Shown in pieces: positions 5,984 to 34,422 of a stretch of DNA of 44,609 nucleotides; the stretch's first letter is position 1; each line of letters begins with the position of its first letter. The notes under the pieces are model-generated. The model made no database searches and was not told the DNA's origin. It was given only the letters and a program-made list of their open reading frames with translations. The stretch lies in contig JAEOTM010000113.1 of the NCBI GenBank assembly GCA_016839815.1, forward strand, positions 1-44,609, written 5' to 3'. This DNA is from Candidatus Hodarchaeota archaeon (GTDB taxonomy: Archaea > Asgardarchaeota > Heimdallarchaeia > Hodarchaeales > Hodarchaeaceae). The translations under genes were made by a program, and so were the position numbers.

Positions 5984-6057
5984 AATGAGCGATTCAGAGT
6001 AACTATAATCTATCATAGCAAAGCTCATACTTGTCAGGTTTCATCATTACGCTCATT
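5984..6057 (-). ncRNA. Box C/D guide RNA (dual guide, LSU H69 and H70/71)
   Basis: 8-bp terminal stem AATGAGCG/CGCTCATT; C ATGATGA; guide AACCTGACAAGT; D' ATGA; C' ATGATAG; guide TTATAGTTACT; D CTGA; both guides complementary to conserved 23S sequences. Confidence 0.9.
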
Positions 6058-6081
6058 ATATTATGAAAAGGAGGATTCTAC

Positions 6082-6498
6082 CTAATCCTCAAGTTCATCA
6101 TCATCTTCTTTAAGATCCTCTGAAGCTCTTATTAATTCAGCCATGGAGTATTGTTGGTCGAATTTTTTCCAAATTGCAGAAACTATCGCATCGTTCAATC
6201 CTTTAATCTTTTTAGCAACTACTTTCTTTGCTTCTTCACGTTTCTCTGGTAGCTCTGTGAATCCCCACATGGCCGCTGGAACTGCTTCTGGATTTTTCTC
6301 AATTATATATACGGTACCCTCTTGTTGTTGGAATGAAAAGAACTGAGGTTGAATGAGTGGACAATCAGATAATTTATGCAGTCCAGTCACAGTGAATAAA
6401 TGATTGCATCGAGTTTTATCAGGGGAAGTTGCTGAGGTTTTGAAAGCACAGTGACCTTTATCAAGGTATCTCCATGCTGTTATTAATTCAGTTTTCAT
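6082..6498 (-). CDS. mak16: Mak16/L28e-family 60S biogenesis factor homologue
   Basis: W..L..gHCAFK...RCNH..VTGL....CPL....F....G.VYIIEK..E..PAAMW...L follows the Mak16 N-domain; acidic tail. Confidence 0.8.
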   Translation of the reverse strand: MKTELITAWRYLDKGHCAFKTSATSPDKTRCNHLFTVTGLHKLSDCPLIQPQFFSFQQQEGTVYIIEKNPEAVPAAMWGFTELPEKREEAKKVVAKKIKGLNDAIVSAIWKKFDQQYSMAELIRASEDLKEDDDELED

Positions 6499-6554
6499 TA
6501 TTGATCACTTTATTATTCCGAAAGTAAATTTTATTTCCGATTTCTAGGGATAAC

Positions 6555-6627
6555 AGCCGCTGGTGGGACTTGAACCCACGGCCAACAGATTACAAGTCTG
6601 TCGCTCTACCAACTAAGCCACAGCGGC
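6555..6627 (-). tRNA. tRNA-Thr(TGT)
   Basis: Cloverleaf GCCGCTG...CAGCGGC; anticodon arm ACAGA-CTTGTAA-TCTGT; T-loop TTCAAGT; CCA not encoded. Confidence 0.97.
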
Positions 6628-6673
6628 AAATTTTCGGTTTTAAGCCAATGAAAGTTTCCCTTGTTGCTTTGAT

Positions 6674-6767
6674 TGAGGATCATTTCATTATTGTTAATCT
6701 TCAGTACGGATAACAACTTATGGTAAATCCTTTTCACCATTCAACCTGCAGGTGGCTTCAATCCCCA
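6674..6767 (-). ncRNA. Candidate structured RNA (four-way junction), family unknown
   Basis: Closing stem TGGGGATT/GATCCTCA plus three hairpins; G-U pairs form only on the minus strand. Confidence 0.45.
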
Positions 6768-6836
6768 CTCCTAAAAACTCCTCTTAAATTTGTTTCAAAC
6801 TCCCTGTATAAACCAAAGGATAATCTTAATACTCCC

Positions 6837-7307
6837 TTATTCGAGCATTAAATAGCTTTGATTCCGAATAAAAAGAGTTAGAAGTCCTTTTTTCCTTGCT
6901 AATCGTTTTAATTTTCGGTCATTTGTAGCAATTATGCCTTTAAATCTTTCCCCATACTCTAGAAGCACGAAATCAATATTTTTGTGTTCATAATTTGTAT
7001 CCCATATCTCACACTGTTTTTCTACATACTGAAGTGCAATCTGAGCTTGCCTTTCAACTTTTATTTTTCCACACTCATGAAGCTTATTTAGCTCATTGAG
7101 AATTGGTGTCAGGATGATCAATTTTCTATTTCCTGGAAAAACACGATCAAGCTCATAAGTTAAATTAAAGCCTTTCATTTGACTGATGGCCATTAAAAAA
7201 TTTGTGTCTAGGAAAATTACTCTATCAGAATCAATGAATGACGAGATTATTAGCCCGCCTGCTGTTCTTTTCCACCAGTTATTGTCCCCCAGCCGATTAA
7301 ACGCCAC
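6837..7307 (-). CDS. PIN-domain nuclease, Fcf1/Utp24-like (start uncertain)
   Basis: FLDTNFL, ILNEL, NIDFVL, IATNDRKLK; conserved position after aIF2-gamma. Confidence 0.9.
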   Translation of the reverse strand: MAFNRLGDNNWWKRTAGGLIISSFIDSDRVIFLDTNFLMAISQMKGFNLTYELDRVFPGNRKLIILTPILNELNKLHECGKIKVERQAQIALQYVEKQCEIWDTNYEHKNIDFVLLEYGERFKGIIATNDRKLKRLARKKGLLTLFIRNQSYLMLE

Positions 7308-8732
7308 CTTCTGTCAATCTGTCTACTAATTGCGATTCTTATTCCTGTTTCAGCACACACAGGTAACCGCAAACTCACTCCAACGTTACCTTTGGCTGAC
7401 ATTACTACTTTCCCTACCGTTTTAGCTGTTCCGACGCTTAACATCAGATTTTCATTCATTTCTATATTTTGAACAGTACTTTGAGATTCGCTTCCTACTA
7501 CTCGTTCCATTAAATGTGATTCAAATTCTAAGGTATCCCAGCTTGGAGGTAAAGACTCAGAATATCCAACAACATGGCCTACTAACATATCACTTTTTGT
7601 GAGTGCAGGATCAAGATTAGTTCCGATTCCGATTAAACCCCCTGGATGAGCTGTCTCCAGTTCTCCGAACCCAGAACGTAAGCTCACGACCTTTGTATTA
7701 AGAAATTTGTATCTATTTCCTCTCCTCACTCCAGGTCGAATCTGGATATCGTCTCCTACAGAGAATTTTCCTTGTATAATACTACCACCCACAACTCCAC
7801 CTTTTAATTTCTCTGGGGATTGGCCAGGTTTATTTACATCGAATGATCTTGCCACCAGCATTTGAGGTGGAAGATCAGCATCACGAGGAGGAGTAGGTAA
7901 ATTTTCCTCAATGCTTTGTATTAATAAATCAATATTAGAATGATGAACTGCGCTAATCGGGATAACTGGCGATTTTTTTGCTGATGTTGTCGAAATGAAC
8001 TTCTTAAGATCTTTGAAATTAGCAACAGCATCTTTTTCAGATACTAGTTCGATTTTATTTTGACAAACGATAACTTTTTCCATTCCGATGATATCCATGG
8101 CGGCTAAATGTTCACGGGTCTGAGGCATCGGTACTCGTTCATTTGTAGCTACTACTAGTATAGCTCCATCCATAATACTTGCACCAGAAAGCATTGTAGC
8201 CATTAAAACTTCGTGGCCAGGGGCATCAACAAAAGCTACACGTCTTAATAGTACGGTTTCTTTCTCACAATTGGGACATTCTTTTTTAGTTGTGTATTTT
8301 TTTGGTGCTTCACACTTTGGGCATTCACGAAATTCTGTTTCCGCATATCCAAGTCGGATAGAAATACCTCTACGTATTTCTTCGCTATGAGTATCAGGAA
8401 ATTTCCCTGTAAGCGCTTGAGTTAAGGTAGATTTTCCATGATCAACATGTCCAATCATACCCAAGCTAATTTCAGCCTGATTGGGAATCCCAGTAACTTT
8501 TTTTGCTTTTACAGAAGATTTTTTTGAGGTTTTGGTCGTTTTCTTCTTAGTAGATTTTGCTGCAGTAGTAGTTTTCTTTGTAGTAGTTTTCTTACTTTTT
8601 GCCGCGGTCTTTTTTGTTGTTTTTTTTTGTAGTGGATTTTGATGATTTTGTTGACTTTGTTGATTTTACCTCTTCTGTTTCTGAAGACGTAGATTTTTTC
8701 TTAGTTGATGTTTTTTTCTTTCGCGGCGACAT
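7250..8732 (-). CDS. eif2g: Translation initiation factor 2 gamma subunit with Lys/Thr/Ser-rich N-terminal extension; 1-nt frameshift at the A9 run 8620-8628
   Basis: GHVDHGKS, RGISIRLGY, Zn knuckle, DAPGHE, NKIE, WRLIGWG; conserved QAEISLG lies upstream of the ORF-track start; ATG at 8732 with GAGG upstream is one base out of frame. Confidence 0.9.
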
Positions 8733-8752
8733 AAGAATCCTCGAAATATAGT

Positions 8753-9127
8753 TTAAAGTAATTCCTCTATTGGGCTACTGCCTCTTTCAGTGATTTTCAA
8801 ATTAATTTGAAATATATCTTCACTAATCAGAGAACCCCGAACACGTTTTCTTCTTCTCCGTCCTTTCCTTTTTGGTTTATATCCAACTCCACGATGGCCA
8901 ATAAGTATCCGCTTTGGCATAGCCCCATCTACACCAGGAGCCATTGGAAAACCTGAATGATCAGAACCACCAGTGATTTTAAATTTATATCCTTCAAAAC
9001 CAATAGTTGAACCCTCAAGCTCGTCACCAACCGACATTCCGATTAATGGACGAGTCATAGCGTCCTCATCTATTTCTTTCTTGTAGCTCTGTTTCTCATC
9101 CGCTAAATTTAATTGAAATCGAACCAT
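8753..9127 (-). CDS. rps6e: 30S ribosomal protein S6e
   Basis: KITGGSDHSGFPM, RRRKRVRG, QINLKI. Confidence 0.97.
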   Translation of the reverse strand: MVRFQLNLADEKQSYKKEIDEDAMTRPLIGMSVGDELEGSTIGFEGYKFKITGGSDHSGFPMAPGVDGAMPKRILIGHRGVGYKPKRKGRRRRKRVRGSLISEDIFQINLKITERGSSPIEELL

Positions 9128-9365
9128 GTTCTCATCTCTAACCTTTTTAAATTACTACAAATGTGTGAATTAATGGGCACGAGTAGTAATATCGTTAACA
9201 GGTCAATGGTGTCATTAGGTGTTCTTAAGATTCAGATTCTTATTTCTTGTTATGAAAGATTTTAAGTCTTTACCGAGGAGCTTTTCCTACTGGGTTAGTT
9301 TGCTTGAGAAGTATAAATGTTAAATCACACTTTCGGGCATGATTTGCTGATGATGTGAATGCTCA

Positions 9366-11168
9366 TTAGAAAGCCCAATACTTATTGACAGTTCGTCTTT
9401 TTATTTCTATTAAATCGTTCAAAGCATCCATTTCTGAACCAGAAAGAATTTTATCAGCTAATATCTTACGAGCATGATTTTCTGGAACATTGACCCAGAG
9501 CTCATCATCTTCTTTAACTTGCCTACCAGCTGTAGGTCCTTTAATTGCTACAGCCACTTGATTCCCTACTTCTGCTTTAGGTAAATTATCCCCACGATCT
9601 TGAATTTGTAATAGATGACCTATTACTTTATTATCACGATTGACTAGATCAACTTTGGGAGTTAAAATTCCAGAAAGAACTTCTACACCCACAATACAGG
9701 GTTTACATTGTCTGAAAATAAAAGGAAGTACCTTGATTTTACTGGGTCTTATGATATCTTTAAGAGCTTCTTCTTCAAGCTCTTGTTGAACTTTGTATTG
9801 ATATTCTTGGTATTCCTCGCTTAATTGATAGATAATATCACTTTGAAGAATAGGTATCCCCAGTCGATTACCTTCCTCCAGAGCATCTTCCAAGACAGTT
9901 GTTCTAAATGCAAGAATAATACCAAAGGTCCTATCTTTCTCTTTAGCTAGAGAAGCTTGATAAATATCCTTTTTTGTAACATCCCCAACAGCTGCAAAAC
10001 GTATTTGTATACTCGAGTCCCTTAAAAAGTTTACAAGCGCTTCTAATGAACCTAATGCATCAGCTTTGACAATGACTCCAGCATCATCTGTTTCCACTAA
10101 GATACTAGCTAATTCGTCCTCAATTCTTTGAATTGCTTCAACTTCAGTCTTTTCTGTGACTACATATAATGAAGAACCTGCGATTGCATCCTCAAGTTCA
10201 GGAGCTACGATTTTAACTCCTATTGCAGCTATAGCTTCATCAACATTTTCAAATTTGTTCCGTGGGTCTCGTATTTCATCTAGATCTTTTGGAAGTAGAA
10301 GTGCTCGAACTTTTGTGGATATCACACCATTTTTACCAGCAAGTACTACTTGCGAACTATTACGAATTATCCCATCAAATAGGATTACATCAAGAGTGGT
10401 ACCGAGGCCTACTTCTTTTTTGACTTCTAATACTACTCCTTTTCCACTATCGAGATGAAGAGCTAGCTGGGTTTTTAGATATTGTTCGGTTAAGGTAGCT
10501 AAAACAAGAAATAATTCAGGTATACCTTCTCCTGTAACTGCGGATGTTGGAATGATCGCTATTTTCTTTGCAAAGTTCTTAATCTTGTCATACCTTTCAG
10601 GTTCTAACTTAAAATGGCTTAACTCACTCATAATTTCGTAGATGACTGATTGAAGAGCATCCTGGGTGCTTTTCGATTGTTTTTTCAGTGATTGAGCCAA
10701 AGATAATTTTGGATAACTCCGCCAACCAGGTAATCTATCAATTTTATTAGCAGCAATCAGAAAAGGGACTTTATTCCGAACTAGAATCCGTAAAGATTCC
10801 ACTGTCTGAGGTTGGATTCCCCTACGAACGTCTATTACAAGGATTGAAAAATTAGCCGTACTTGCTCCTCTCGATCTCAAATTCATAAAGGCAGCGTGAC
10901 CTGGTGTATCAATAATAAGAATTCCAGGAATATTAAGACTCTTTTTGCCATCTTCCAATAGTTTACCACATAATGCAGTAACAGTATCAATTGGAAAAAA
11001 ACTTGCGCCAATATGCTGGGTTATCCCTCCAGTTTCTCGCGCCTGTACAGCTGTTCCCCTTACTTTATCAAGCAGACTCGTCTTCCCAGAATCAACATGC
11101 CCTAAAATTACCGTAATTGGACTCCTCATCACTTCTTCAGAGTTGTTTTCTTCTGCCAATATAGTCAC
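9366..11168 (-). CDS. infB: Translation initiation factor aIF5B (IF-2)
   Basis: RSPI..LGHVDSGKT, GGITQHIGA, IDTPGHAAF, NKID, KADALGSLEA. Confidence 0.97.
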   Translation of the reverse strand: MTILAEENNSEEVMRSPITVILGHVDSGKTSLLDKVRGTAVQARETGGITQHIGASFFPIDTVTALCGKLLEDGKKSLNIPGILIIDTPGHAAFMNLRSRGASTANFSILVIDVRRGIQPQTVESLRILVRNKVPFLIAANKIDRLPGWRSYPKLSLAQSLKKQSKSTQDALQSVIYEIMSELSHFKLEPERYDKIKNFAKKIAIIPTSAVTGEGIPELFLVLATLTEQYLKTQLALHLDSGKGVVLEVKKEVGLGTTLDVILFDGIIRNSSQVVLAGKNGVISTKVRALLLPKDLDEIRDPRNKFENVDEAIAAIGVKIVAPELEDAIAGSSLYVVTEKTEVEAIQRIEDELASILVETDDAGVIVKADALGSLEALVNFLRDSSIQIRFAAVGDVTKKDIYQASLAKEKDRTFGIILAFRTTVLEDALEEGNRLGIPILQSDIIYQLSEEYQEYQYKVQQELEEEALKDIIRPSKIKVLPFIFRQCKPCIVGVEVLSGILTPKVDLVNRDNKVIGHLLQIQDRGDNLPKAEVGNQVAVAIKGPTAGRQVKEDDELWVNVPENHARKILADKILSGSEMDALNDLIEIKRRTVNKYWAF

Positions 11169-11441
11169 TCCAGTGCTATTTTTTCCCTTAGAAATCTCTT
11201 ATTGACTTAATCAGAGGAAATGACTGATGATCAAGTTTGAACCTTAATTTAAATTAAGATTAGATTGATAAACTTCTGTCTTTCTCAATTTCGTTAATAA
11301 ATACTAAATCGAGAAGCTTACAGGTCATGAAACAAAAAATGCTTACACATTGAATTACTTACCGTTGATAGAAAGCTAAAATTTATGACCGAATATGTAG
11401 AGACTCGATTCAAGTAAAAACAACACGGAGAATGTAAATCT

Positions 11442-11852
11442 TTGCGTAGGGACCATACACATTACTTTATTTACCCAGAATATTTTGATAAATCTCTTAA
11501 ACGTAGCGAAGGTCGAAGATTACCCATTAACGCTTCACTAGAGAATCCATCTCTATTAGAAATTAGATTAGCAGCAGAAAAATTAGGCCTTGATTATGAA
11601 ATTCGTGAATCTGGAAGTTATCCGCGCCAATGGTGGAACCCAAAAGGTTTGATTCTCATAGAAAAAAAAGAATCAAAATTAAAGACAATTCGACAATTAG
11701 GTTATGAAATCGATAAAACTATTAAACCTGCTCTTGAGAAAAAGAGAAAAGAGGTTAAGGAAGCAAAGAAAAAGAAGGGTACTAAAATAAAATATAAATC
11801 TGTTAAAAAAACAGCAAGTCAATCTGAATTTCGTCCAAAAAGACGTAGATAG
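11442..11852 (+). CDS. srp19: Signal recognition particle 19 kDa protein with basic C-tail
   Basis: IYPEYFD..LKRSEGRRLP, NPSL.EI, YPRQWW..G. Confidence 0.95.
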   Translation: MRRDHTHYFIYPEYFDKSLKRSEGRRLPINASLENPSLLEIRLAAEKLGLDYEIRESGSYPRQWWNPKGLILIEKKESKLKTIRQLGYEIDKTIKPALEKKRKEVKEAKKKKGTKIKYKSVKKTASQSEFRPKRRR

Positions 11853-11979
11853 CGGTATTAGAACGAATTGTGTGTTGTTACAAAGTGATTTAGGGGATGA
11901 AGCTCTAACCGAGTCTATTCTTCATCTAAGAAATATTCAAGGGTTAATCAATGATCAGATTTTGCCGGGGGAGGAATGA

Positions 11980-12621
11980 ATGAGAAAAAAACGGGATGTT
12001 TATACGAAACGTGCAAAACAGGAAGGTCATCGAAGTCGTGCGTACTATAAACTTCAACAGATAGATAAGAAATACAAAATTTTTGATTCTAAGCAAATTG
12101 TTATTGATCTTTGTGGAGCTCCTGGTGGATTTTCACAAGTGGCTCGAGACAGCACAAATGGAAAAGCTTCTATAATCCTTGTAGATCTTGCTAGAATCAA
12201 AACTATATATGGAGTCAAAACTATAATAAAAGGGGATATATCTCATCAATCCACCGTATTCCAAATACAAGAAACCGTGGAAAAATATCACTCCCCCAGT
12301 CAGAAAATTGTAGTTCTCGCGGATTGTTCACCGAATGTTTCAGGGAACTGGCCAACTGATCATGCAATCCAAATATGGTTATCTGAAGTTGCTCTTGGAA
12401 TCTCTAACTATTTTTTAGCCAATAAATTTGTCACCAAGGTGTTTCAAGGAGAACTATCTTCACAATTCATTGGAAAAATTAAACATTTTTATGAGGAAGT
12501 AAAGATCTACAAACCTCCTACCTCTAGGAAAGCGAGTGCAGAAGTCTATATTATTGCACAGAAGAGGAGCAATCTAAAATTGGAATTATATGATATAAAT
12601 TCGCTCCTCGCTGATGAATGA
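11980..12621 (+). CDS. rlmE: 23S rRNA Um2552 methyltransferase RlmE/FtsJ
   Basis: RSRAYYKL, DLCGAPGGF, ADCSP, TKVFQG, SAEVY (K-D-K-E tetrad). Confidence 0.93.
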   Translation: MRKKRDVYTKRAKQEGHRSRAYYKLQQIDKKYKIFDSKQIVIDLCGAPGGFSQVARDSTNGKASIILVDLARIKTIYGVKTIIKGDISHQSTVFQIQETVEKYHSPSQKIVVLADCSPNVSGNWPTDHAIQIWLSEVALGISNYFLANKFVTKVFQGELSSQFIGKIKHFYEEVKIYKPPTSRKASAEVYIIAQKRSNLKLELYDINSLLADE

Positions 12622-13817
12622 TATCTAATGTGATGCCAATGGATTTCACCACAACAATTGAAGGAGGGAGGGAGTATTTTATTCCTTCCCCTGTCATCAA
12701 TTCATCAGTTCCTAGGAAAGTAGATGAAGTGTTCTTTAATCCCTACCAGAAAGTTAACCGCGATCTTTCTGTGCTGGTTATAAGAGCTTTTTCTAATATA
12801 AATCGTAATGTGGATCTAAAGATTTGTGAACCATTCGGAGGAGTCGGTGTAAGAACATGTCGTTACGCTACTGAAGTTCCTTCCAGTAGGATTTATTATA
12901 ATGACGTAAATTCTAAAGCTGTCAAGATCACTAAGCGTAATATTTCTTCATTACCAGTGCAAATACAAGAAAAGATTAAGATTCAAAACAAAGAGTTCAC
13001 AGATTTCTTGAATTCACTATATCTAGAGCATCCAATTATGGATTTTGTGGATATTGATCCTTATGGTACTCCTATTCCCTATGTTCATAGATCTCTCAAA
13101 TTCGTCGCATTAAAGGGTCTACTAGCATTTACCGCCACTGATTTAGCAAGCTTATCTGGATTGTACCCACGAGCTATGTATGCAAAATACGGAATCGGAG
13201 TTTTTGAGAAACGGATCGGAAATATTCACGAACTTGCAGCTAGAATTTTAATTACAGGAATTCAACGAATAGGATTAATTCAGAACCAATCATTAATCCC
13301 AGTTTTTACATTCTATTATAGACATTTCATCCGGACATTTCTGATAAGAGTTCGTGGAGTGGATAAGGTTCTCGATCAAACAGGTTTTCTTCAAAGATGT
13401 CAGACGTGTAACACTATATCTCAGAGTTCGGTGAAATCAAAAGATAGGGGATGTTCCTCGTGTGGAAATAATCAACTCTGGAGAATAGGCCCCTTATACC
13501 TAGGAAAACTCCACGACGATTCATATCTGACTTCACTTATAGCAGATCCTCATATCAATGTTATCAATGGATCTAAAAGAATTTCAAGAATAATTAATCT
13601 AATAAACGAAGAAAATAAACCAAATATTCCTTGGTCTTATGATTTACAATCTGTAGCAAAAATTGTTAGCAGACCTATTCCCCCTATGGAGTCCATAATA
13701 GAAAAACTTAGTGATGCAGGCTATAAATGTTATAAGACTCATTATTCAGGAACTTCTCTAAAAACAAATGCAGGATTTAATGACCTTTCAGCAATTCTTA
13801 TGGGGGCAAATGAATAA
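12618..13817 (+). CDS. trm1: tRNA (guanine26-N2)-dimethyltransferase
   Basis: VFFNP..NRDLS, GVGVR, YNDVN, DIDPYG, TATD, CxxC/CxxC, GPLYLG. Confidence 0.95.
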   Translation: MISNVMPMDFTTTIEGGREYFIPSPVINSSVPRKVDEVFFNPYQKVNRDLSVLVIRAFSNINRNVDLKICEPFGGVGVRTCRYATEVPSSRIYYNDVNSKAVKITKRNISSLPVQIQEKIKIQNKEFTDFLNSLYLEHPIMDFVDIDPYGTPIPYVHRSLKFVALKGLLAFTATDLASLSGLYPRAMYAKYGIGVFEKRIGNIHELAARILITGIQRIGLIQNQSLIPVFTFYYRHFIRTFLIRVRGVDKVLDQTGFLQRCQTCNTISQSSVKSKDRGCSSCGNNQLWRIGPLYLGKLHDDSYLTSLIADPHINVINGSKRISRIINLINEENKPNIPWSYDLQSVAKIVSRPIPPMESIIEKLSDAGYKCYKTHYSGTSLKTNAGFNDLSAILMGANE

Positions 13818-13919
13818 TTCTTCTGAAAAAAGATTTATCCTGAAACCAAAAATCTCCATTCGGAAAAAGACTCATGTATAATTCATTTACAGGGTTGAAA
13901 TTGTATTCTTGAATCCATC

Positions 13920-14032
13920 AGGGACGTAGTCTAGCATGGTTTTAATTGTTTTCTGGAATAATACAGAATCAATGACTAGATGATTCTTGGTTTGGGACCA
14001 AGAGGTCGCGGGTTCGAATCCCGTCGTCCCTA
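13920..14032 (+). tRNA. tRNA-Pro(TGG) with about 36-nt D-loop intron (approx. 13944-13979)
   Basis: Acceptor AGGGACG/CGTCCCT; anticodon arm CTTGG-TTTGGGA-CCAAG; T-arm GCGGG-TTCGAAT-CCCGT; hairpin insert with relaxed BHB in the D-loop. Confidence 0.92.
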
Positions 14033-14104
14033 CTTTTCTTATCTTTCTTGAGTATTTTTTTATCAAATTGGAGACCCTAACGGATCTTAGCATGGTTTGA
14101 CACA

Positions 14105-14974
14105 ATGAAAGCTTCAATGAAAGGAAAAATTTGCCTGATTACAGGTGCAAATCGCGGTATAGGAAAAATAACTGCTTTTGAATTAGCAAAATTAGAAGCT
14201 CATGTTATTATGGTCTGTCGGGATCTTGAAAAGGGTACAAAGGCACAAAAAGAGATTATGGAACAATCTGGCAATCCTGATATTGATCTTTATATTGTAG
14301 ATTTAGCTTCTCAGTCATCAATTAGGAAATTTGCCAGTAATTTTAGTAATAAGTATAAGGAATTACACGTATTAATTAATAATGCAGGTACGATTACAAA
14401 AAAATGGACACTTACAGAAGATGGTATTGAAAAAACATTTGCTGTCAATCATCTCGGCCCCTTTCTTTTAACTAACCTTCTTCTTGATTTATTGATTGCA
14501 GGATCACCTTCAAGAATTATTACAGTCAGTTCTGGTATGCATCATAAGGAAGCCATAAACTTTGATGATCTCCATTCCAGAGATAAATATGGAAACCTGA
14601 AGATGTATTCAATCTCAAAACTAGCCAATATTCAGTTCACTTATCATCTAAATCAACAATTGAAGAATTCAGGAAAAAAGAACGTTACGGTTAATGTTGT
14701 TCATCCAGGTTTCACACGAACTAAATTTGGGAGAAAAGGTCTTTCATTACTTCAGAACATTGGATTACGGCTCATTCACCCAATCATGGCAATCTCTCCT
14801 GAAAAAGGAGCAGAAACAACAATTTATTTGGCAAGTTCTCCTGAAGTACGAGAGATTAGTGGAGAATATTTTGTAAAAAAGAAAATCGCTCAATCCTCTC
14901 CAATTTCTTACAATCGTAAGGAACAAGAACGTTTATGGACTATCAGTGAACAGATGACTGGATTCACCTCTTAA
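14105..14974 (+). CDS. Short-chain dehydrogenase/reductase (retinol dehydrogenase/WWOX-like)
   Basis: TGANRGIG, NNAG, VNHLGPFLL, YSISK, HPG. Confidence 0.95.
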   Translation: MKASMKGKICLITGANRGIGKITAFELAKLEAHVIMVCRDLEKGTKAQKEIMEQSGNPDIDLYIVDLASQSSIRKFASNFSNKYKELHVLINNAGTITKKWTLTEDGIEKTFAVNHLGPFLLTNLLLDLLIAGSPSRIITVSSGMHHKEAINFDDLHSRDKYGNLKMYSISKLANIQFTYHLNQQLKNSGKKNVTVNVVHPGFTRTKFGRKGLSLLQNIGLRLIHPIMAISPEKGAETTIYLASSPEVREISGEYFVKKKIAQSSPISYNRKEQERLWTISEQMTGFTS

Positions 14975-14989
14975 GACTCATCTAACAGT

Positions 14990-22665: not shown

Positions 22666-22712
22666 GATATTTTCAGATTTAATGAACGTCTAATAGTAGG
22701 AAAAGGTGAAAA

Positions 22713-25134: not shown

Positions 25135-27570
25135 ATGCCTAAATTTACTATCGAAGAAGCACAAAAACTCCTCGTTAATCGAAAAAATGTACGAAACTTG
25201 GGAGTAATTGCTCATATCGATCACGGGAAAAGTACACTGACTGATTCGCTTCTTGCTGCAAGTGGATTGTTAGCTGAAAAGGTAGCTGGAGAAGCCAGAG
25301 CAACAGACACACGAGAAGATGAACAAGAACGTGGAATTACTATCAAAACGACAGGAATTTCTTTAGTTCATGAATTAAAAGAAAAAACCTATCTTGTAAA
25401 CCTCCAGGATACACCAGGACACGTAGATTTCTCGGGTGAAGTTACATCGGCTCTACGAGTTGTAGATGGAGCACTTGTCGTAGTTGATGCTGTAGAAGGA
25501 GTTATGGTTCAAACTGAAGTTGTAACACAGCAAGCTCTAGCCGAACGTGTTCGTCCCGTTTTAATTATTAACAAAGTAGATCGGTTAATAACTGAAATGA
25601 GAATGAGTCCCGATAATGCCTATGAGCAGTTTAAAAAGATTATTAGCGACTTCAACCTACTTATTGAAACATATGCTCCACCTGAATTTAAGAAAATATG
25701 GAGAGTCGATCCTAGACAGGGAACAGTTGCATTTGGATCTGCTATTCATAGATTTGGATTGACAATTCCGGCACTCGCAGAGATTTGGCACGAAAAAACT
25801 GGCCAACCAGTCGAAAAGTTAATTAAAAACTTGTGGATGAAAAATAATTTTGTTAATGGTGTTCTCAAACCAACCTACGAGATTTATCAAAAAGCGGAAG
25901 AAAGCGATACTGAATCATTGAAAAAGGTTGCAGAGCAATTAACATTACGAATAGATGAAAGTGTGTGGTTAGAACCTCCTAAAAGAATAGCAAAGGCATT
26001 ACTAGAAAAATGGCTCCCTGTCGAGAAAGCTGTACTTGATATGGTAATCAATTTCTGTCCCTCTCCACTCGAAGCACAGAAATACAGATTTAAAAGCTTC
26101 TGGTCTGGAGATATGGAATCTCTAGAAGGAAAAGGACTCCTGAACTGTGATATTGATGCACCCACAATGATATCAATATCTAAAATGATCCCAGGAAGAG
26201 CAAAACGAATTATTGCCATGGGAAGAGTTTTTTCCGGAACAGTAAAAGCAGGACAAAAGATAACTGCCCTTCTACCAGGATATAAGCCTGGATCTAAGGA
26301 AAGAATGTTTACTACAAATATTCAGCAAGTATCGATGTTAATGGGTGCTAAAGCAGAAAAAGTTGATTTAATTCCTGCTGGGAACATTGTTGCTTTGCAG
26401 GGACTACGGGGAGCGACTGCAAGTAGTACTATCACAAGTTTAGAGACCACTCTTCCATTTAAAGCATTAAGCTACGCAGTGGAACCTGTAGTTACCATTG
26501 CAATTGAAGCTAAATCTCCTAGTGAGCTACCTAAACTTGCAGAAGGACTTCAGCTCATGGAATTGGTAGATCCATCACTAAAAACTAAGGTTAATGAAGA
26601 AACTGGAGAATTCTTATTATCTGGAACAGGAGAACTTCATCTTGAAATAGCTGTTAAAGATCTCCAAGACTTGCAGAATATTGAAGTAACTCAAAGTGAG
26701 CCTATTGTAGTCTTCCGAGAATCAGTTGCTGCTGAATCTACTCAACAAGCTCTCGCAAAATCACCCAATAAACATAATAGATTATGGGTGCGAGCTGCTC
26801 CTCTTGAAAAAGATGTCATAAAAATTATTGAATCTGGAAAGATTCACCAATACACTGATCGAAAAGAGATGGGACAGATTCTCCGAGATGATGCTGGTTG
26901 GGATGCTAAAGTTGGTCGTAAAGTTTGGGGTATGGGTCCCGAGGAAACAGACCCAAACTTCTATATTGATGCAACTAAAGGTGTTCAATACCTTCGTGAA
27001 GTAAAGGATTATCTTATCCAAGGATTCCGATGGGCTGGTAAAGAAGGTCCATTATGTGGTGAACCATTTTACGGGATAAAATTCTTATTAGAAGATGTTA
27101 AACTTCATGAGGATCCAGTACATAGAGGCGCGGGTCAAACAATGCCTGTATCGAGAAGAGCCTGCTTCGGTGCAGTTTTATTAGCGTCTCCTATACTTCT
27201 TGAGCCCGTTTATAAGGTACAAGTTCAAGTTCCTGAACAGTACCTAGGAAATGTCTATAAGGTTCTTACAAAACGAAGAGGACGTGTTGTTGATACACAA
27301 AAACGCGAAGGGACTCCTTTAAATGTAATTATTGCAGAGGTTCCTGTTACTGAATCCTTCGGAATTACCACCGATTTACGTTCTGAAACTTCAGGATTCG
27401 CATTTTCACAGATGGTCTTTGATCATTGGGAAAAAGTACCTGGAAATCCCACTAAAGAAGAAGAACTAGGCGGTGGGTTAGCTCGTAAGTTTGTCATGGA
27501 AACTAGAAAACGGAAAGGATTCCATAACCCCAATCCTCCAAAACCTGAAGATTATTACGATAAACTCTAA
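25135..27570 (+). CDS. fusA: Translation elongation factor 2 (diphthamide-type) with eukaryote-like G' insertion
   Basis: AHIDHGKS, RGITI, DTPGHVDF, NKVDR, GELHLE, KSPNKHNR, HEDPVHRG. Confidence 0.97.
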   Translation: MPKFTIEEAQKLLVNRKNVRNLGVIAHIDHGKSTLTDSLLAASGLLAEKVAGEARATDTREDEQERGITIKTTGISLVHELKEKTYLVNLQDTPGHVDFSGEVTSALRVVDGALVVVDAVEGVMVQTEVVTQQALAERVRPVLIINKVDRLITEMRMSPDNAYEQFKKIISDFNLLIETYAPPEFKKIWRVDPRQGTVAFGSAIHRFGLTIPALAEIWHEKTGQPVEKLIKNLWMKNNFVNGVLKPTYEIYQKAEESDTESLKKVAEQLTLRIDESVWLEPPKRIAKALLEKWLPVEKAVLDMVINFCPSPLEAQKYRFKSFWSGDMESLEGKGLLNCDIDAPTMISISKMIPGRAKRIIAMGRVFSGTVKAGQKITALLPGYKPGSKERMFTTNIQQVSMLMGAKAEKVDLIPAGNIVALQGLRGATASSTITSLETTLPFKALSYAVEPVVTIAIEAKSPSELPKLAEGLQLMELVDPSLKTKVNEETGEFLLSGTGELHLEIAVKDLQDLQNIEVTQSEPIVVFRESVAAESTQQALAKSPNKHNRLWVRAAPLEKDVIKIIESGKIHQYTDRKEMGQILRDDAGWDAKVGRKVWGMGPEETDPNFYIDATKGVQYLREVKDYLIQGFRWAGKEGPLCGEPFYGIKFLLEDVKLHEDPVHRGAGQTMPVSRRACFGAVLLASPILLEPVYKVQVQVPEQYLGNVYKVLTKRRGRVVDTQKREGTPLNVIIAEVPVTESFGITTDLRSETSGFAFSQMVFDHWEKVPGNPTKEEELGGGLARKFVMETRKRKGFHNPNPPKPEDYYDKL

Positions 27571-27668
27571 TTAATTTGAGTTTATCCATAATTTCTTCTC
27601 TTTTTCCTCTTAATTATATTAATATAGCATCGTAGAAATCTTTCGGGAATATTAACAAAAAAAATTTA

Positions 27669-27743
27669 CGGATCCGGAGGGATTTGAACCCACGACATTC
27701 TGCTCCGAAGGCAGACGCTCTATCCATGCTGAGCCACGGATCC
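27669..27743 (-). tRNA. tRNA-Arg(TCG)
   Basis: GGATCCG/CGGATCC acceptor; TCTGC-CTTCGGA-GCAGA; TTCAAAT T-loop. Confidence 0.97.
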
Positions 27744-28018
27744 AGTGATTTAAATTCTCTGTGATTTATTATTAGTGATTTCTAGAGTGAATTACAAAAC
27801 AATTATTTGATTAATAAGAATTTATTGGAAACTGATTTTAGAGGATAATTTCACATTTTCTTGTTAATGATAAGAAATAAAGCATCCCTTTTACCTGAAT
27901 CAGCTTCTAGAATGATTTTCTGCTTTTGTTTTATTTCTATCAACAGAGATAGAAAACTTGTGGAGGTATCACACGACTGATGACCTTTATTAAGTCCTCT
28001 TTTCAGAGGAGTATTGGA

Positions 28019-28294
28019 TCATCTTGTTTTACGTTCAGAAGCCGATCGAATCTTTACTTGATGTCTGTGAATTGCGCATGAAACGCAGAAATATCGAACA
28101 TATGGGATTCGTGCAATTCTTGTTCCAGATTGCCGTAGTTCCTTTCCAATTGTAAAATCAACTAAATTTTTATAGCTTGTTTTCCGCTTGGCCTTATCTC
28201 TTGGAACCAGTCGTCCACATGAAGAGCATTGAACTTGACCTAAGTTACCTTTCCCGCCTTTACTTCGGCCACCTGATTTTCGTTTTTTACCCAT
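28019..28294 (-). CDS. rps26e: 30S ribosomal protein S26e
   Basis: MGKKRKSGGRSK..VQCSSCGRLVPRDKA..CVSCAIH; start moved to ATG 28294 (GGTG upstream). Confidence 0.95.
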   Translation of the reverse strand: MGKKRKSGGRSKGGKGNLGQVQCSSCGRLVPRDKAKRKTSYKNLVDFTIGKELRQSGTRIARIPYVRYFCVSCAIHRHQVKIRSASERKTR

Positions 28295-28370
28295 TACGAG
28301 TACACCTTTAAAATATGAAAGTAAGTTAAAAAAATTGATTAAAGTCAATATTACCTTCATTTACATGTTT

Positions 28371-29042
28371 TTAGAGGTCGTTTTTAATCTCTCCCATGAC
28401 TGGAGGAATAGCATTCTTCGTCACGAAAAGGGCTAAATATTCCAAATTTAAATGATAAGCTTTATCCAAATCGAAAAATGAAGACGTTTGGGGAAATTCT
28501 CCAACCAAATACTCATGGATGCTTTTTCTTATAATATCCAATTGTTTAAAATAAGCATCAGAATACCTTTGAACTTTTGTTAGGAGCTCGCTTGTTAAGA
28601 AGACGAAATCTGGTGCCTCATTAGAGGAAAGTATTCTTTTCGACATCATTTCATATAACTGTTCCTGATTTTTCCCATTCAAGAGAAAAAGAAGAAATCC
28701 AGGCATTGGTAGGAAAAATAAAATCATAATAGAGGAAAATGGACCGAACTGTAAATCAAATCGAGAAATTGATTCATCTGAAATAATCATGGCGGAAAGA
28801 ATTAGGTTTAATGACGCGATTAATGTCGCCTGAAAGGATCCTCTTCCGATCCAATAAAGCTTGCCCGAGTATTGATGAATCGGGTCTTTATTCGTAAAAC
28901 TAATTCCTTTAAAGCTCAAAATCGCATAAAAAATAATAGTCCAAGGTATAATGCATAACAACAAAAGGTAGCTATCGTAGAATCCTAAACTGAAGATAAA
29001 TAGAAAATTGAGTAAAGAAAGAATAAAAAAAAGGGAGGGCAC
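28371..29042 (-). CDS. Hypothetical membrane protein (4 TM and soluble tail)
   Basis: 223-aa ORF between the roadblock and S26e genes. Confidence 0.65.
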   Translation of the reverse strand: MPSLFFILSLLNFLFIFSLGFYDSYLLLLCIIPWTIIFYAILSFKGISFTNKDPIHQYSGKLYWIGRGSFQATLIASLNLILSAMIISDESISRFDLQFGPFSSIMILFFLPMPGFLLFLLNGKNQEQLYEMMSKRILSSNEAPDFVFLTSELLTKVQRYSDAYFKQLDIIRKSIHEYLVGEFPQTSSFFDLDKAYHLNLEYLALFVTKNAIPPVMGEIKNDL

Positions 29043-29075
29043 AGAATTGCATTCCTGTATTAATTCTTGTGTAGA

Positions 29076-29510
29076 TCAGCTTAAAAGATCTTTTAGCTCG
29101 GAAACCAAGCTAGAAATATCTTTTTCCTCTTCCTTGAATATTTCAGGGATTTTATGACTATAACGTCTGAGAACACGAATGGCTAGTCCTAAAGAATGTG
29201 CTTCGTTTGATGCACCAATTAAGATAAAGTCTTCTGCGGAACTTAATACTGTATAACCCTTCTCTCCCCGAACTAAGACTTCCCACAATTGTCCATGATC
29301 CATTCTGTCTACAACCATTCCACCTGTAGAAAGAACTGCTGCTGAAAGGGCAGAAAATAGATCTGGATCTGCATCTTTTTCTGAAAAGAATGCAACACTC
29401 ATCCCAGTACGAGTGACTAGTGCAAGCGCTTCTAAATCAGCATAACGTACAATTTCTTGTAATAATTTGATTAATTTCTTTTTTTGCTCAACTGTAAGTG
29501 CAAAGGCCAT
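29076..29510 (-). CDS. Roadblock/LC7 domain protein
   Basis: ALVTRTG...D.FSALSAA....G....L.EVLVRGEKG...LG roadblock pattern. Confidence 0.9.
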   Translation of the reverse strand: MAFALTVEQKKKLIKLLQEIVRYADLEALALVTRTGMSVAFFSEKDADPDLFSALSAAVLSTGGMVVDRMDHGQLWEVLVRGEKGYTVLSSAEDFILIGASNEAHSLGLAIRVLRRYSHKIPEIFKEEEKDISSLVSELKDLLS

Positions 29511-29815
29511 TTTTTCACCTTCAGAAAGGTTCTCACAATATTAGATGTTGCTTTTTAATATGAGATAAGAATCTAGATTGTGATAATTGTCATTACGAAT
29601 CATATGCTCTATTTAGGTAATAATCATCGGGTAATGATTTAAACCTTACTAAACCAAGAATCAGCAGAAAATGATATTCACATTTATTGACACAGAATTA
29701 TCAACCTTCATCTTAAGATGGATTCATAGAAAATCCTAAAAATTCCTAAATTGACGTACAGATTTTATCTTTCATTACCAGAAAGGATCTGGATGATTTA
29801 TTAAAGTGGTTAAGA

Positions 29816-30805
29816 ATGGACACTTCCCGTGAGAAGGTTATTCTCGGATTATTTGTATTAGATAGGATAATCACTTCAAAATCAAGAGAATCTACTTCAA
29901 ATGACTCAGAACATACGAATCTTACACTTGGAGGACCTCCAACCTTCATGTTATTCATATCCGAAATTTTGAGAGAGATCTTCCCAATTATGAAGAAACC
30001 TACTATATTTTCGTTCATATCTAAGCAAACTAAGAGTTTATTGGAAAAGTTATCATATAGCAATCACATTGATATCTGTTTGAGACATCTTAATACAAGT
30101 CCTAAATTCATATTAGACTACTCCCAACCAACCACTGAAAGAAAACTGACATTATTCAATCCACCAGAAGTATTTCATTGTGACTCATTTGACTGGCAGT
30201 TCCCACATCCTCCAATTTTTATTATTAGTTCTGTACACCACGAGTTTGATTCAATCCAGGTCTTTTCTTTTCTGCGAAAAATCGGGAGTTTTGTAGCTTT
30301 CGACCCTCAAGGTTGCTTTAGAACAGTTGTTAAAGATGGAAAAGTATCTTATTCAGAATGGTTTTCTCAAAAGATCTTAGCACAAACAGATTGTATAAAA
30401 CTTTCGGATAATGAGACAAAACTTCTTGGATTAGGGAGTGATGAAGAGAAGATTATTTGTTATTTATTATCGATTTCTCCGAGATATGTTTTAGTAACAA
30501 AGGGAGGGAAGGGAGCCTTATTCGGTGTGAAAGATCAGAATTCTAATCGTTGTCATATATATTCGGTTCCTGCATATACCGTAGAGAAGGTGACGAACGA
30601 AACTGGAGCAGGAGATGTATTTTTATACGGCTTTATTAGCTTCTTACAACTCCTTGGGGATGAATTAGATGCTATCGCATATGCAACTAGTCTAGCATCA
30701 CTACTAATTGAATATGGTTTTGATAAGGAGAAATTCACATTACACGAAATCAAGTACAGACAGAAAACCGTTCATTCGCAAATTAGGAAGATTTACGTTG
30801 ATTAA
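29816..30805 (+). CDS. PfkB-family carbohydrate kinase
   Basis: LGGPP, FDPQG, VTKGGKG, TGAGDVF. Confidence 0.9.
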   Translation: MDTSREKVILGLFVLDRIITSKSRESTSNDSEHTNLTLGGPPTFMLFISEILREIFPIMKKPTIFSFISKQTKSLLEKLSYSNHIDICLRHLNTSPKFILDYSQPTTERKLTLFNPPEVFHCDSFDWQFPHPPIFIISSVHHEFDSIQVFSFLRKIGSFVAFDPQGCFRTVVKDGKVSYSEWFSQKILAQTDCIKLSDNETKLLGLGSDEEKIICYLLSISPRYVLVTKGGKGALFGVKDQNSNRCHIYSVPAYTVEKVTNETGAGDVFLYGFISFLQLLGDELDAIAYATSLASLLIEYGFDKEKFTLHEIKYRQKTVHSQIRKIYVD

Positions 30806-30859
30806 GCAATCATTGTAAAGAGAATTTTCTCCCTTTCCAGCATTTTTAAATCTAGAAAA

Positions 30860-31078
30860 CTAATCAACCTTTATATAAAGGATGTTATTCCCCCGAAGAA
30901 ACGCACGGCCATATCGCTTAGTTATTTTCCCGTCCTCCATTTCAGAACAGTTTTCTAGTATTAAATTCATATATTGGTCAGTTATTTTTAATCGTCCTGT
31001 ATAAGATTGATTACTTTTGAGTGTAACAGTAATTGTTTTGCCAACGGATTTTTCTAAAGTTTGTAATGGATTGGACAT
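30860..31078 (-). CDS. Sm/Lsm RNA-binding protein (SmAP)
   Basis: Sm1 G.L...DQYMNLIL and Sm2 LRGNNI. Confidence 0.95.
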   Translation of the reverse strand: MSNPLQTLEKSVGKTITVTLKSNQSYTGRLKITDQYMNLILENCSEMEDGKITKRYGRAFLRGNNILYIKVD

Positions 31079-31177
31079 GGTACTCGTTCCTTAAAATTCA
31101 GGTATATCAAGAATAAGCTTAATTTCAACTCAATTTGATAAATTCTAAAAATGTTTCTTCACCTATTCTGAGATACA

Positions 31178-33382
31178 TTATTCTTCTTCTGAATAAAATT
31201 CATGTAATATTTCTAAATCTGGAGATTGATACAAAGCAATATATTCTTCTTTAAAGTCATTCAGTAATCTTTCTATTGTAAAATCAGCTACCTGAGACTC
31301 TTTCAGAGCAATTTTCTTTTCAATAAGTAAAGACATACGTTTTCGTCTCAATTTCTCCTCTAATCGCAATTCCTGCTTCCTAATCTCCTCCTTAACCGAA
31401 ATATCTGTTAGATATAGCTCCTCATATACCCAAATTTCTAATGGAGGATCGATAGAAGTTCGATCTCTTTCTGTATAGTTCCCCAGTGGTAATTCAATAC
31501 AAGGTATACAATTCTCATTAAAAACTTGGAGAGCTTGATCAGAAAATTTTGGAGTTCCCTCTGGAGTAAGCACTCCTCGTATCCCATAATTAATTAGTGT
31601 GAGGGCAGTTTGGGCACCTCCACCGCTAGGATCTAGCACTAAAACAATATCACCCTCATGTAATCCATAATTTATATTAGTATCCCGAATTGCTGAGTCA
31701 GAGAAGGAGTTAAGGGGTTTTAAAGGGAATTCATGACCTTGAACCCAAAAATTCTTTATTTCTTTTAACTTTCTTAATTCTGATTCATTCTTTTTTATCT
31801 TGTGTTTAAGTAATCGATTTTCCTCTTTGATTTGTCCTACTTCTCTTTCAACAACATTCGATACTTTCTTTCGAGTTTGTTGGGAATTTTTGACTCTTGC
31901 TTTTTCTAATAGATTGCTTAACCTCTTTATTTCAAGAGTTTGATCTCGAGATCGATCCCTCCAATATTTGACTTCCTGGTCAATTTTATGCATTTCCTCT
32001 GATATGGTGTCAAATTTCGCTTGCCATTGTATATTTTCGTTTTTTAAGGAATTTACTAGATGTTTAAAATCAGTTTCTTTTATCTCAGTGACGTGAGGAT
32101 CCTCTCTTCCATGAATTAAAGATATAGCATTTGTAATACTATTCCCAGCAAGAACTAAGCGTTGGATTTCAGCAAGATGCGGAATTAATGTGGAATGAGA
32201 TTCCTCAATTATCCTTTTGACTTTTTGAAATTGAGGTTTAAGGAGATTATATCCCTTTAAAGCTCCAAATAATGCATCTCTTTCATGAGAGTTCAAATGA
32301 CTATAATTTACCGTTAAATCAGAATAATCTTGAAGGTAATTTCTTTTTTGAGCGGCTGTAGTAAGCACTGAAGGGGTTAATAATTTAGCTCCTGTAATTT
32401 TCGCAACACGTTCAACCATAGCAGGTGCAGGAATGACATCCGCAGCAACACAGCTCACTTTCCCAAATTTTGTTGAAATGCGGATAATTTCTGATATTCC
32501 ACATTCACGTTTTGAGCCCAAATAAAGTACATTTCCACGATTGCAATCTAGTATCGCAATCCCAGTAGTTGTTCCTGGATCTAATCCCAAAATCACATTT
32601 TTTAGCGATTTAGCTGAAGGAGCCATAGCAACGTCTAGTGGCTTAAAGTCTAGGGTCGATCTAGTGATTCTTTGTAGAGTTACTTTTACTAAATCAGTGT
32701 TTAGAGGTTTAATCTTGATTTGTACAGAGGATATCAGCTCATTTTCTAATTGAACTAAATAAACACGTTTTTGTGGATATTTAAATACATCCCACTTAAG
32801 ATTTTGATCTTTGAGAATAGCTACTACTTCTCTTGAAGCTTGTTGAACAGCTGTTCCACTGATCCGTTCATATCGAGGAGCGGACCATCCTCCCTTTCCA
32901 TGGGATTTTTTCCGGGTTATCCGAATTTTAATTTCTTCTTCGAACGCTTCAACTATAAATCCTACTCTTTTTATACATAATCGCGCTGCTACTTCCGCTG
33001 TTTCCACAGCTGACAATTTTTTAGCCTTATAAGTAAAACTTATTGATTTTCTGAGGTTATGTTTAGTGATCAGTTGGGAAAGTTTTTCCATCCCTGTTCG
33101 TGGATTTCCAGTCACCTGTACCAAGAGTGAAGTTGGAGGGATCAATTCGAGTAGTCGAATTATTCCTTGTGCGTTTGGTGCTAATTCAAAGATATTATCT
33201 ATAGCAATATAATCTGGTTTAATATCCTGAATTTTCTTTAATAGTTGACGTTTATTCAGTTTCACGTGTTTTTCAAGGTGATCGTTGTTTATGATCACTA
33301 ATGAATAGATGCGAGAGGTTTTTTTCCCTCTTTCTTTAAATGCTAAAACATCAATGCCAAATATGATAAGTGAGCTCTTCAT
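31178..33382 (-). CDS. DUF460 protein (RNase H-like fold and coiled coil)
   Basis: AIDNIFEL, LVQVTG, GGWSAPRY, GLDPGTTTG, HERDAL. Confidence 0.9.
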   Translation of the reverse strand: MKSSLIIFGIDVLAFKERGKKTSRIYSLVIINNDHLEKHVKLNKRQLLKKIQDIKPDYIAIDNIFELAPNAQGIIRLLELIPPTSLLVQVTGNPRTGMEKLSQLITKHNLRKSISFTYKAKKLSAVETAEVAARLCIKRVGFIVEAFEEEIKIRITRKKSHGKGGWSAPRYERISGTAVQQASREVVAILKDQNLKWDVFKYPQKRVYLVQLENELISSVQIKIKPLNTDLVKVTLQRITRSTLDFKPLDVAMAPSAKSLKNVILGLDPGTTTGIAILDCNRGNVLYLGSKRECGISEIIRISTKFGKVSCVAADVIPAPAMVERVAKITGAKLLTPSVLTTAAQKRNYLQDYSDLTVNYSHLNSHERDALFGALKGYNLLKPQFQKVKRIIEESHSTLIPHLAEIQRLVLAGNSITNAISLIHGREDPHVTEIKETDFKHLVNSLKNENIQWQAKFDTISEEMHKIDQEVKYWRDRSRDQTLEIKRLSNLLEKARVKNSQQTRKKVSNVVEREVGQIKEENRLLKHKIKKNESELRKLKEIKNFWVQGHEFPLKPLNSFSDSAIRDTNINYGLHEGDIVLVLDPSGGGAQTALTLINYGIRGVLTPEGTPKFSDQALQVFNENCIPCIELPLGNYTERDRTSIDPPLEIWVYEELYLTDISVKEEIRKQELRLEEKLRRKRMSLLIEKKIALKESQVADFTIERLLNDFKEEYIALYQSPDLEILHEFYSEEE

Positions 33383-33397
33383 AATTAGAAAACCATT

Positions 33398-34306
33398 TCA
33401 GTTCTGGGGTCGATCCAACATTTTAAGTATCTCAGAAATGTCATAATGAGTTTTTACTGAAAATTTTTTCTCAAAATAATTCAGAATATTCTGACAGTCA
33501 CGCGATAAGATTTCTATGGCCTGAGGTTCCTCTGTCGTGACATATTGGGGCCAATCAATTAATACAGGGTAATCTTCCTCATTTAAGCGGATATTGTACT
33601 CACTTAAATCTCCGTGGATATATCCGTGGAGAACACTATTTTTGATTTCTTGGATAATATTGTGAAAGAGCAACGCAATTTCCTGTTCGGTTCCAAGGTC
33701 ACTTTTTTTCATGCGATAGAGATCTTGTCCTTTTACAATTTCCATAACAACTAGATGTCGATTCTGAGCAATGGGTTTTGGAACACTGGTACTAGCTTTA
33801 TAAAGATCCTTAAGAACTTTATACTCTCTTCCAGCAGATAATCTGCTTTCGTACAAAGGAGAAAGATGTCTTTTTTCTGCAATAAATGCACGACTCTTTC
33901 TAGTGGCACGAAAATCGAGTTTTCCCAGTCGATGGAACTTGATGATAAATTCATTTGCATTATCATCCATTCCAAGATGGATAGTACTTTCCTTACCTGC
34001 ACCGATTTCAGGGCCAATTTGAGCCAAGATGCCTTTCTCAACCAGTGCTTTAAGAGCGAGAGCATCATATCCAATAAAGGTGAGAGCTGTACCAAGGTAA
34101 TGACGTTGTGCAAGTAAAACAAGCTTCATTTTTCTTAATCGTTTTAATCGAATTTCAACCTTCTTTTCGGCATATTTTATAAATCGAGCAATCTCTTCTA
34201 GAGGTACAAATTCATGTTTAGCCATAAGGATTTCAATAACGGAAAGAATTCGAAAATCAAGTGGTTCGAGTTTACGAAAGTATTGAGTAATGGATAAACG
34301 CGCCAT
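33398..34306 (-). CDS. rio2: RIO2 kinase (SSU maturation)
   Basis: N-terminal wHTH (DFRIL..IE..HEFVP), GKES, KFHRLG, HGDLSEYNI, IDWPQ. Confidence 0.95.
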   Translation of the reverse strand: MARLSITQYFRKLEPLDFRILSVIEILMAKHEFVPLEEIARFIKYAEKKVEIRLKRLRKMKLVLLAQRHYLGTALTFIGYDALALKALVEKGILAQIGPEIGAGKESTIHLGMDDNANEFIIKFHRLGKLDFRATRKSRAFIAEKRHLSPLYESRLSAGREYKVLKDLYKASTSVPKPIAQNRHLVVMEIVKGQDLYRMKKSDLGTEQEIALLFHNIIQEIKNSVLHGYIHGDLSEYNIRLNEEDYPVLIDWPQYVTTEEPQAIEILSRDCQNILNYFEKKFSVKTHYDISEILKMLDRPQN

Positions 34307-34330
34307 AATTTTCGCTCATACAAAGCTAAT

Positions 34331-34422
34331 TGGTCAGTAAGTGCAACTGTCGTCATCAGCAATATGAATTAAAAATTATTAATTCAATTAGCCTCCGTAG
34401 ACCGTCTTTTTCATCATCAGGG
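34331..34422 (-). ncRNA. Box C/D guide RNA (targets peptidyl-transferase-centre H93 region)
   Basis: C ATGATGA (34417-11); guide GACGGTCTA; D' CGGA; AT hairpin; C' TGATGA; guide CGACAGTTGCACTTA; D CTGA (34337-34). Confidence 0.8.

Follow-up and report, generated by a model that had tools for sequence, protein, structure and literature searches.

Introduction

Box C/D small RNAs (sRNAs) of archaea work by a well-established mechanism: the C/D and C'/D' motifs are bound by L7Ae, Nop5 and fibrillarin join the complex, and the target nucleotide facing guide position N+5 receives a methyl group on its ribose. rRNA helices 68-71 and 90-93 are published hotspots of archaeal guides, and most archaeal sRNAs abut open reading frames and mature from longer transcripts (PMC7994747). 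Among the RNAs described so far, sR91 of Ignicoccus hospitalis combines a D target at A2179 with a D' target at G2211 in one sRNA (PMC4644070, Additional file 1; numbers are columns of the alignment of Dennis 2015), and Pyrobaculum sR30, Thermoproteus sR52 and Ignicoccus sR27/sR124 target C2864. On the eukaryotic side, Hoeppner and Poole (PMC3511168) found archaeal guides for no more than one to three of the ancient methylation sites and traced no intronic snoRNA position to the last ancestor common to all eukaryotes (LECA), host choice following expression and mobility being ongoing. Conserved guide duplexes that do not methylate have also been described (PMC6009581). Our literature search found no paper cataloguing the C/D sRNAs of Asgard archaea.

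Here, we analyze two such RNAs, sR-A and sR-B, encoded in a 44,609-nt stretch of DNA (henceforth the window; contig JAEOTM010000113.1, positions 1 to 44,609, assembly GCA_016839815.1) from a Candidatus Hodarchaeota archaeon. The genome, 4.24 Mb and 89.5% complete, belongs to a Hodarchaeum-group Asgard archaeon, since the window's eL28/Mak16 and Rio2 proteins match records of Hodarchaeota, among them Ca. Hodarchaeum mangrovi. Each RNA by itself is ordinary, while the repertoire to which they belong is strikingly focused on sites conserved in eukaryotes. An initial annotation had proposed a proto-snoRNA repertoire together with a host-gene arrangement older than eukaryotes; we find that the target set is not eukaryote-specific and that an inherited arrangement is not supported.

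Two canonical box C/D guide RNAs

Both RNAs are genuine canonical archaeal box C/D guide RNAs of the ordinary class. Each contains boxes C, D', C' and D in this order with guides of 9-16 nt, and all four guides pair over 9-11 bp with the rRNA of the genus and form a Watson-Crick pair at N+5. Boxes and guides are invariant and linkers variable in 22/22 genomes of the genus, and the scan scores of 6.0 (sR-A) and 4.9 (sR-B) compare with a maximum of 0.8 in a reversed-genome decoy. The genome also encodes fibrillarin directly beside nop5 (contig C6). An Rfam search of the window returned no snoRNA family match at E<=1, and thus no likeness to eukaryotic snoRNA families was found there beyond the boxes and the target-dictated guides. 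Results of a sigma-70 promoter scan were set aside because the method is unsuited to archaea.

The first RNA, sR-A (positions 5984-6057, minus strand), is a compact double-guide sRNA with a terminal stem and with boxes C at 6047-6041, D' at 6028-6025, C' at 6016-6010 and D at 5997-5994. Its D' guide (6029-6040) forms 10 Watson-Crick base pairs, with N+5 at 23S G1945 (E. coli numbering; yeast Gm2288; alignment column 2211), and its D guide (5998-6009) forms 11, with N+5 at A1913 in helix 69 (yeast Am2256; column 2179), the two target sites lying 32 nt apart. Since the stem register of sR-A shifts between sequences, RNAalifold produced no usable consensus; stems were therefore counted sequence by sequence, which yielded 5-11 bp in all genomes of the genus and a mean of 7.0 bp versus 3.5 bp in the control. 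Relatives of sR-A occur in four metatranscriptome assemblies, one run containing a 62-nt contig that corresponds exactly to 5986-6047 and two others containing contigs that link the RNA to the eL28 3' end; as contigs alone show neither ends nor transcription, these were not used as support.

The second RNA, sR-B (34334-34417, minus strand), is a double-guide sRNA in which a long hairpin separates D' from C' (boxes C 34417-34411, D' 34397-34394, C' 34359/34356-34350, D 34337-34334). The hairpin is variable in sequence and short in 2 of the 22 genomes, and the terminal stem is weak (2-6 bp). Nine base pairs place the D' guide (34398-34410) at 23S position 2590 (yeast Cm2959; column 2864), and an 11-bp target in the helix-35 loop, which rules out that the D guide (34338-34349) is an orphan, places the latter at yeast U879 (about E. 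coli U747). This nucleotide lies three bases from yeast Am876 and is in neither the yeast nor the plant list. The initial statement that all assignable guides of the window fall on yeast sites thus holds for three of four guides (Am2256, Gm2288 and Cm2959), while the fourth, also assignable, falls on a non-yeast site.

A small repertoire focused on eukaryote-conserved sites

To place the two RNAs in context, the genome was scanned for C/D sRNAs blind to yeast sites, with the best reversed-genome decoy as cut-off. Seven candidates exceeded it. One of these (C17) was dropped because it is not conserved, and a lower-ranked candidate at the end of rpp14 (C122) was added because it is conserved in relatives, giving a final set of seven box C/D sRNAs. 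Candidates C6, C9, C98, C72 and C44 were rejected because they lie within apparent coding sequence, and C22 because it runs antisense over a gene start and is not a full four-box RNA.

The assigned guides target A2256, G2288, C2959, U879, G2815, C2879 and G2619 in the large subunit and U578, G1271, G1428 and C1639 in the small subunit (yeast numbers). Nine of these 11 sites are methylated in yeast. The tally becomes 8/10 without the C1639 guide, which is invariant in sequence and has one mismatch at N+6, and 9/12 if a weak helix-18 guide of 6-7 bp is counted. With C2879, a methylated position in plants and humans, the number of sites methylated in yeast or in plants/human rises to 10/11. A relaxed half-guide scan placed seven matches on yeast sites, against about 0.4 expected; one of the seven is a false positive in coding sequence.

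Two RNAs outside the window showed particular features. The RNA that guides 16S C1402 (own genome C149:6499-6554; L187:2000-2055) shows the same A-C mismatch at N+6 in all of six genomes; the mismatch of Pyrobaculum sR25 at this site is at N+5. In the RNA that guides 16S U531 (own genome C45:36727-36794; L185:2028-2095), the second guide is conserved across Heimdallarchaeia, but its pairing with the opposite strand of 16S helix 18 covers only 6-8 nt and varies in register.

Compared with the exact-column overlap with yeast in published archaeal lists (Dennis 2015), namely 5/55 in Sulfolobus, 3/68 in Thermoproteus, 5/116 in Pyrobaculum and 4/28 in Nanoarchaeum, the Hodarchaeum value is significantly higher (Fisher p <1e-3 each), with the reservation that these lists contain secondary predictions that dilute their overlap. 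Rough hand counts gave about 9/230 for Methanopyrus and about 14/190 for Ignicoccus. Methanococcus, however, reaches 3/9 (33%) versus 4-14% in the thermophilic archaea. As a like-for-like control, the same pipeline was applied to pattern matches from two Bathyarchaeia and one euryarchaeote; Nitrosopumilus was left out, as only 7/82 matches were covered. The Bathyarchaeia returned C1639, A876 and U879, i.e., two yeast sites out of three, and the euryarchaeote one non-yeast site. Because small-repertoire mesophiles also overlap yeast strongly, an Asgard-specific excess over mesophiles is borderline and unproven. The suspicion that the overlap might be no higher than in other archaea is thus contradicted for thermophiles, and for small repertoires the comparison hovers around significance.

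We consider it probable that a small, shrunken repertoire that keeps old core sites explains most of the overlap with yeast, because these core sites belong to an old pool that many archaea share. Under this explanation, sR-A and sR-B would belong to a group of about seven double-guide sRNAs of the ordinary archaeal type in Hodarchaeum, each probably cut out of a housekeeping transcript, which for sR-A would span tRNA-Thr, eL28 and thiI and for sR-B would be the rio2 leader. The RNAs would bind L7Ae, Nop5 and fibrillarin and then pair with pre-rRNA, with methylation predicted at the ribose that faces the fifth base ahead of box D or D'; sR-A may in addition keep helices 69 and 71 close to each other while the rRNA folds. 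The repertoire would be small, as in other mesophiles, and reduced to functionally central rRNA positions drawn from the pool shared with eukaryotes and many other archaea.

Several observations count against this explanation. The Hodarchaeum value of 9/11 lies above the 5/13 of the pooled small-repertoire mesophiles (p 0.047, or 0.11-0.12 by other tallies), and the relaxed scan that hit yeast sites seven times gave no match on 39 common non-yeast archaeal hotspots. In the samples taken, the U531 guide is confined to Heimdallarchaeia. Furthermore, targets were read from the rRNA of relatives, and methylation is predicted only.

Distribution of the guides and the question of inheritance

Since ten of the 11 assigned sites are also guide targets outside Asgard archaea, the sole exception being 16S U531 (yeast Um578), the target set is not eukaryote-specific. 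The claim of a eukaryote-like repertoire holds against Sulfolobus- and Pyrobaculum-type maps, but the sites themselves are widely targeted. All three yeast-matching sites of sR-A and sR-B are already predicted targets in crenarchaea, with further guides to column 2211 in Thermoproteus and Pyrobaculum. The helix-35 column of the sR-B D guide has no target in the seven-species table (Dennis 2015); U879 is, however, a guide target in two Bathyarchaeia, and a C1402 guide likewise occurs in Bathyarchaeia. In one Bathyarchaeia genome (G302, L459:800-1020), a TFS gene is followed by two C/D sRNAs in tandem, which target the yeast-equivalent positions A876 and U879 and have internal hairpins like sR-B. 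For the remaining sites, the G2815 and C2879 pair (G2446 and C2510) equals that of Methanopyrus sR7, G2251 guides are known in three species, and the G1428 and G1271 double guide was found in 19/22 Hodarchaeum and about 12/251 Thermoproteota genomes.

These distributions also bear on a possible vertical inheritance, in which the Heimdallarchaeial or Hodarchaeal guides are a reduced copy of the set in the archaeal ancestor of eukaryotes, without their hosts, such that the overlap exceeds what repertoire size predicts and Um531 is a shared derived character. Nine of the ten sites methylated in yeast or in plants/human appear in a cross-eukaryote table of conserved sites (PMC3511168). A U531-register guide occurs in 23/78 Heimdallarchaeia (14/22 Hodarchaeum and 9/28 of another family), in 1/223 other Asgard genomes and in 0/~570 non-Asgard genomes (Thermoproteota, Halobacteriota, Thermococci-group and assorted; exact-pattern search), and about nine Thermoproteota use the neighboring A532 register in its place. 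Pointing the other way are the ten sites targeted outside Asgard archaea and the patchiness of the guides, which allows for repeated gain: among other Heimdallarchaeia, the guide pattern of sR-A was found in 1/59 genomes and that of sR-B in 0/59, and the G1271 guide was found in none of the other Asgard classes. Moreover, guide sequence cannot prove homology because it is dictated by the target. The single-guide distributions come from exact-pattern searches in samples without Thermoplasmatota and most DPANN, so that variants are missed, and related genomes in them are not independent. Inheritance is thus possible, with a case that rests mainly on U531, but we regard it as rather doubtful. We are similarly hesitant about its two components, that Heimdallarchaeia guides are aimed at LECA-type sites beyond the expectation from repertoire size and that 16S Um531 (yeast Um578, human Um627) is a character of Heimdallarchaeia and eukaryotes only.

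Less likely still is a main role as chaperones of rRNA folding, in which each RNA would bridge two neighboring strands and some sites would be methylated only secondarily or not at all. The short distance between the two sR-A targets would suit this function, two further RNAs form such bridges at helix 34 and at the peptidyl-transferase loop, one invariant guide is mismatched at N+6, and the conserved non-methylating duplexes mentioned above provide a precedent. All four guides of the window, however, keep a Watson-Crick pair at N+5 in a register exactly on known methylated nucleotides. Bridging is in any case compatible with a shrunken set of methylation guides and does not exclude it.

Gene neighborhood

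As initially annotated, both RNAs directly adjoin ribosome-assembly genes in the same orientation. sR-A lies 35 nt past the stop codon of an eL28/Mak16-family gene with an acidic tail (6082-6498, minus strand; PF01778, E 3.5e-8) and is followed by a THUMP/ThiI-like tRNA modification gene (4815-5924, minus strand), an order found in 22/22 genomes of the genus. Upstream of the eL28/Mak16 gene lies a co-oriented tRNA-Thr(UGU) gene (6555-6627, minus strand), part of a translation cluster (6555-11168, minus strand) that also encodes an aIF5B-like GTPase, eS6, aIF2-gamma and an Fcf1-like PIN protein. The end of sR-B is 28 nt from the start of the co-oriented rio2 kinase gene (33398-34306, minus strand; PF09202 (Rio2_N) and PF01163 (RIO1)), likewise downstream in 22/22 genomes. 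The wording that ribosome genes host the RNAs goes too far, as both are intergenic and not within any gene or intron.

Among the seven RNAs, five flank a translation or RNA gene (6-7 of 14 flanks), with eL28/thiI, rio2, uL16/pth2 (followed by a pelota-like gene), rpp14 (3' overlap) and a TtuA-like gene as neighbors; assuming that 6-10% of the genes in the genome are of this kind, the enrichment has a p of about 1e-4 to 1e-3. The other two lie beside TPR/cofE and a hypothetical gene. Outside the genus the neighbors change: in another family, CBS and malic-enzyme genes flank the sR-A equivalent; the U531 RNA elsewhere lies beside peptidase C69, and a Thermoproteota helix-34 RNA beside a phosphoribosyltransferase gene. 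In a non-Asgard Bathyarchaeon (G302), a C1402 guide RNA directly precedes an eL22-family gene (L463:845-1120; PF01776, E 1.6e-5). The same neighbor across deep lineages was not found, adjacency being conserved within the genus only. An inheritance of the host arrangement by eukaryotes is not supported, because the RNAs are not intronic and their neighbors change outside the genus. The full initial proposal, that the target set and its hosting by ribosome-assembly genes both predate eukaryotes and were inherited by them, is therefore largely refuted and in our view very improbable: the enrichment and the restriction of eL28/Mak16 to Hodarchaeales and Njordarchaeales (PMC10307638) speak for it, but it is opposed by the two RNAs lacking a translation neighbor, the eL22 case outside Asgard archaea, the general proximity of archaeal sRNAs to open reading frames and the absence of host positions traceable to LECA. 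The genus-wide linkage to translation genes would rather reflect suitable operon expression than hosts shared with eukaryotes.

Reference sequences and further observations

As no rRNA was found in the assembly, guides were paired with 16S and 23S sequences of the same genus (including L008/L141, L140 and L142), and E. coli rrnB and an S. cerevisiae rDNA contig served as further references for numbering. On the latter, the expected bases at methylation sites were recovered 38/38 and 18/18 times. The yeast site list was cross-checked against PMC11542601 Table 2. One-base errors of MAFFT, near 18S A28 and at the helix-35 loop, were adjusted by eye, and the Dennis 2015 columns of all species were hand-counted from the published alignment. 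One full-length 23S sequence (L001, G001:C57) was rejected as a genus reference and treated as foreign because it is only ~65% identical to other Hodarchaeum 23S; it likely represents a mis-binned contig. Heimdallarchaeia 16S and 23S genes (L020 = G007:C9; L004) have insertions of ~750-880 nt, the 23S one at helix 69, which are probable rRNA introns. Yeast-type rDNA was present on 38 contigs (L146-L183) of the prokaryote collection, most fitting the S. cerevisiae numbering exactly, i.e., contamination of bacterial assemblies.

In the window, positions 11980-12621 (plus strand) encode an FtsJ/RlmE-like methyltransferase (PF01728, E 5e-43). A U2552 guide is present in five of the seven archaea in Dennis 2015 (PMC4644070); its absence here would fit, because this enzyme could methylate U2552 without a guide. 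A weak tmRNA-model match with tRNA-like ends (13920-14035, plus strand) is probably an intron-containing tRNA, and ARAGORN suggested a tRNA-Sec candidate elsewhere in the genome (C32:37975-38111).

Comparison with known guide RNAs

Where one to three ancient eukaryotic sites had been matched to an archaeal guide, a single archaeon here matches ten, and TACK lineages also have related guides. Counterparts of much of the core methylation map of eukaryotes therefore exist in archaea, irrespective of the cause. Tabulating the presence of each guide across archaea would constitute a direct test of the origins of eukaryotic snoRNA targets, independent of the protein trees that are disputed for Hodarchaeales.

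The closest counterpart of sR-A is Ignicoccus sR91, which pairs the same two targets in one sRNA; sR-A differs from it in the phylum, the long terminal stem and the position after eL28/Mak16. The crenarchaeal RNAs that share the target of the sR-B D' guide (E. coli 2590) have partner guides aimed elsewhere, whereas sR-B combines this guide with the helix-35 site and an internal hairpin. Yeast snR63, snR75, snR73 and snR77 and their plant/human equivalents address the same nucleotides (Am2256, Gm2288, Cm2959 and Um578), but in yeast as separate snoRNAs and not as the short archaeal double guides of Hodarchaeum. Eukaryotic intron-hosted snoRNAs likewise reside in or near broadly expressed translation genes; unlike them, the Hodarchaeum RNAs are intergenic, involve no splicing and change neighbors beyond the genus.

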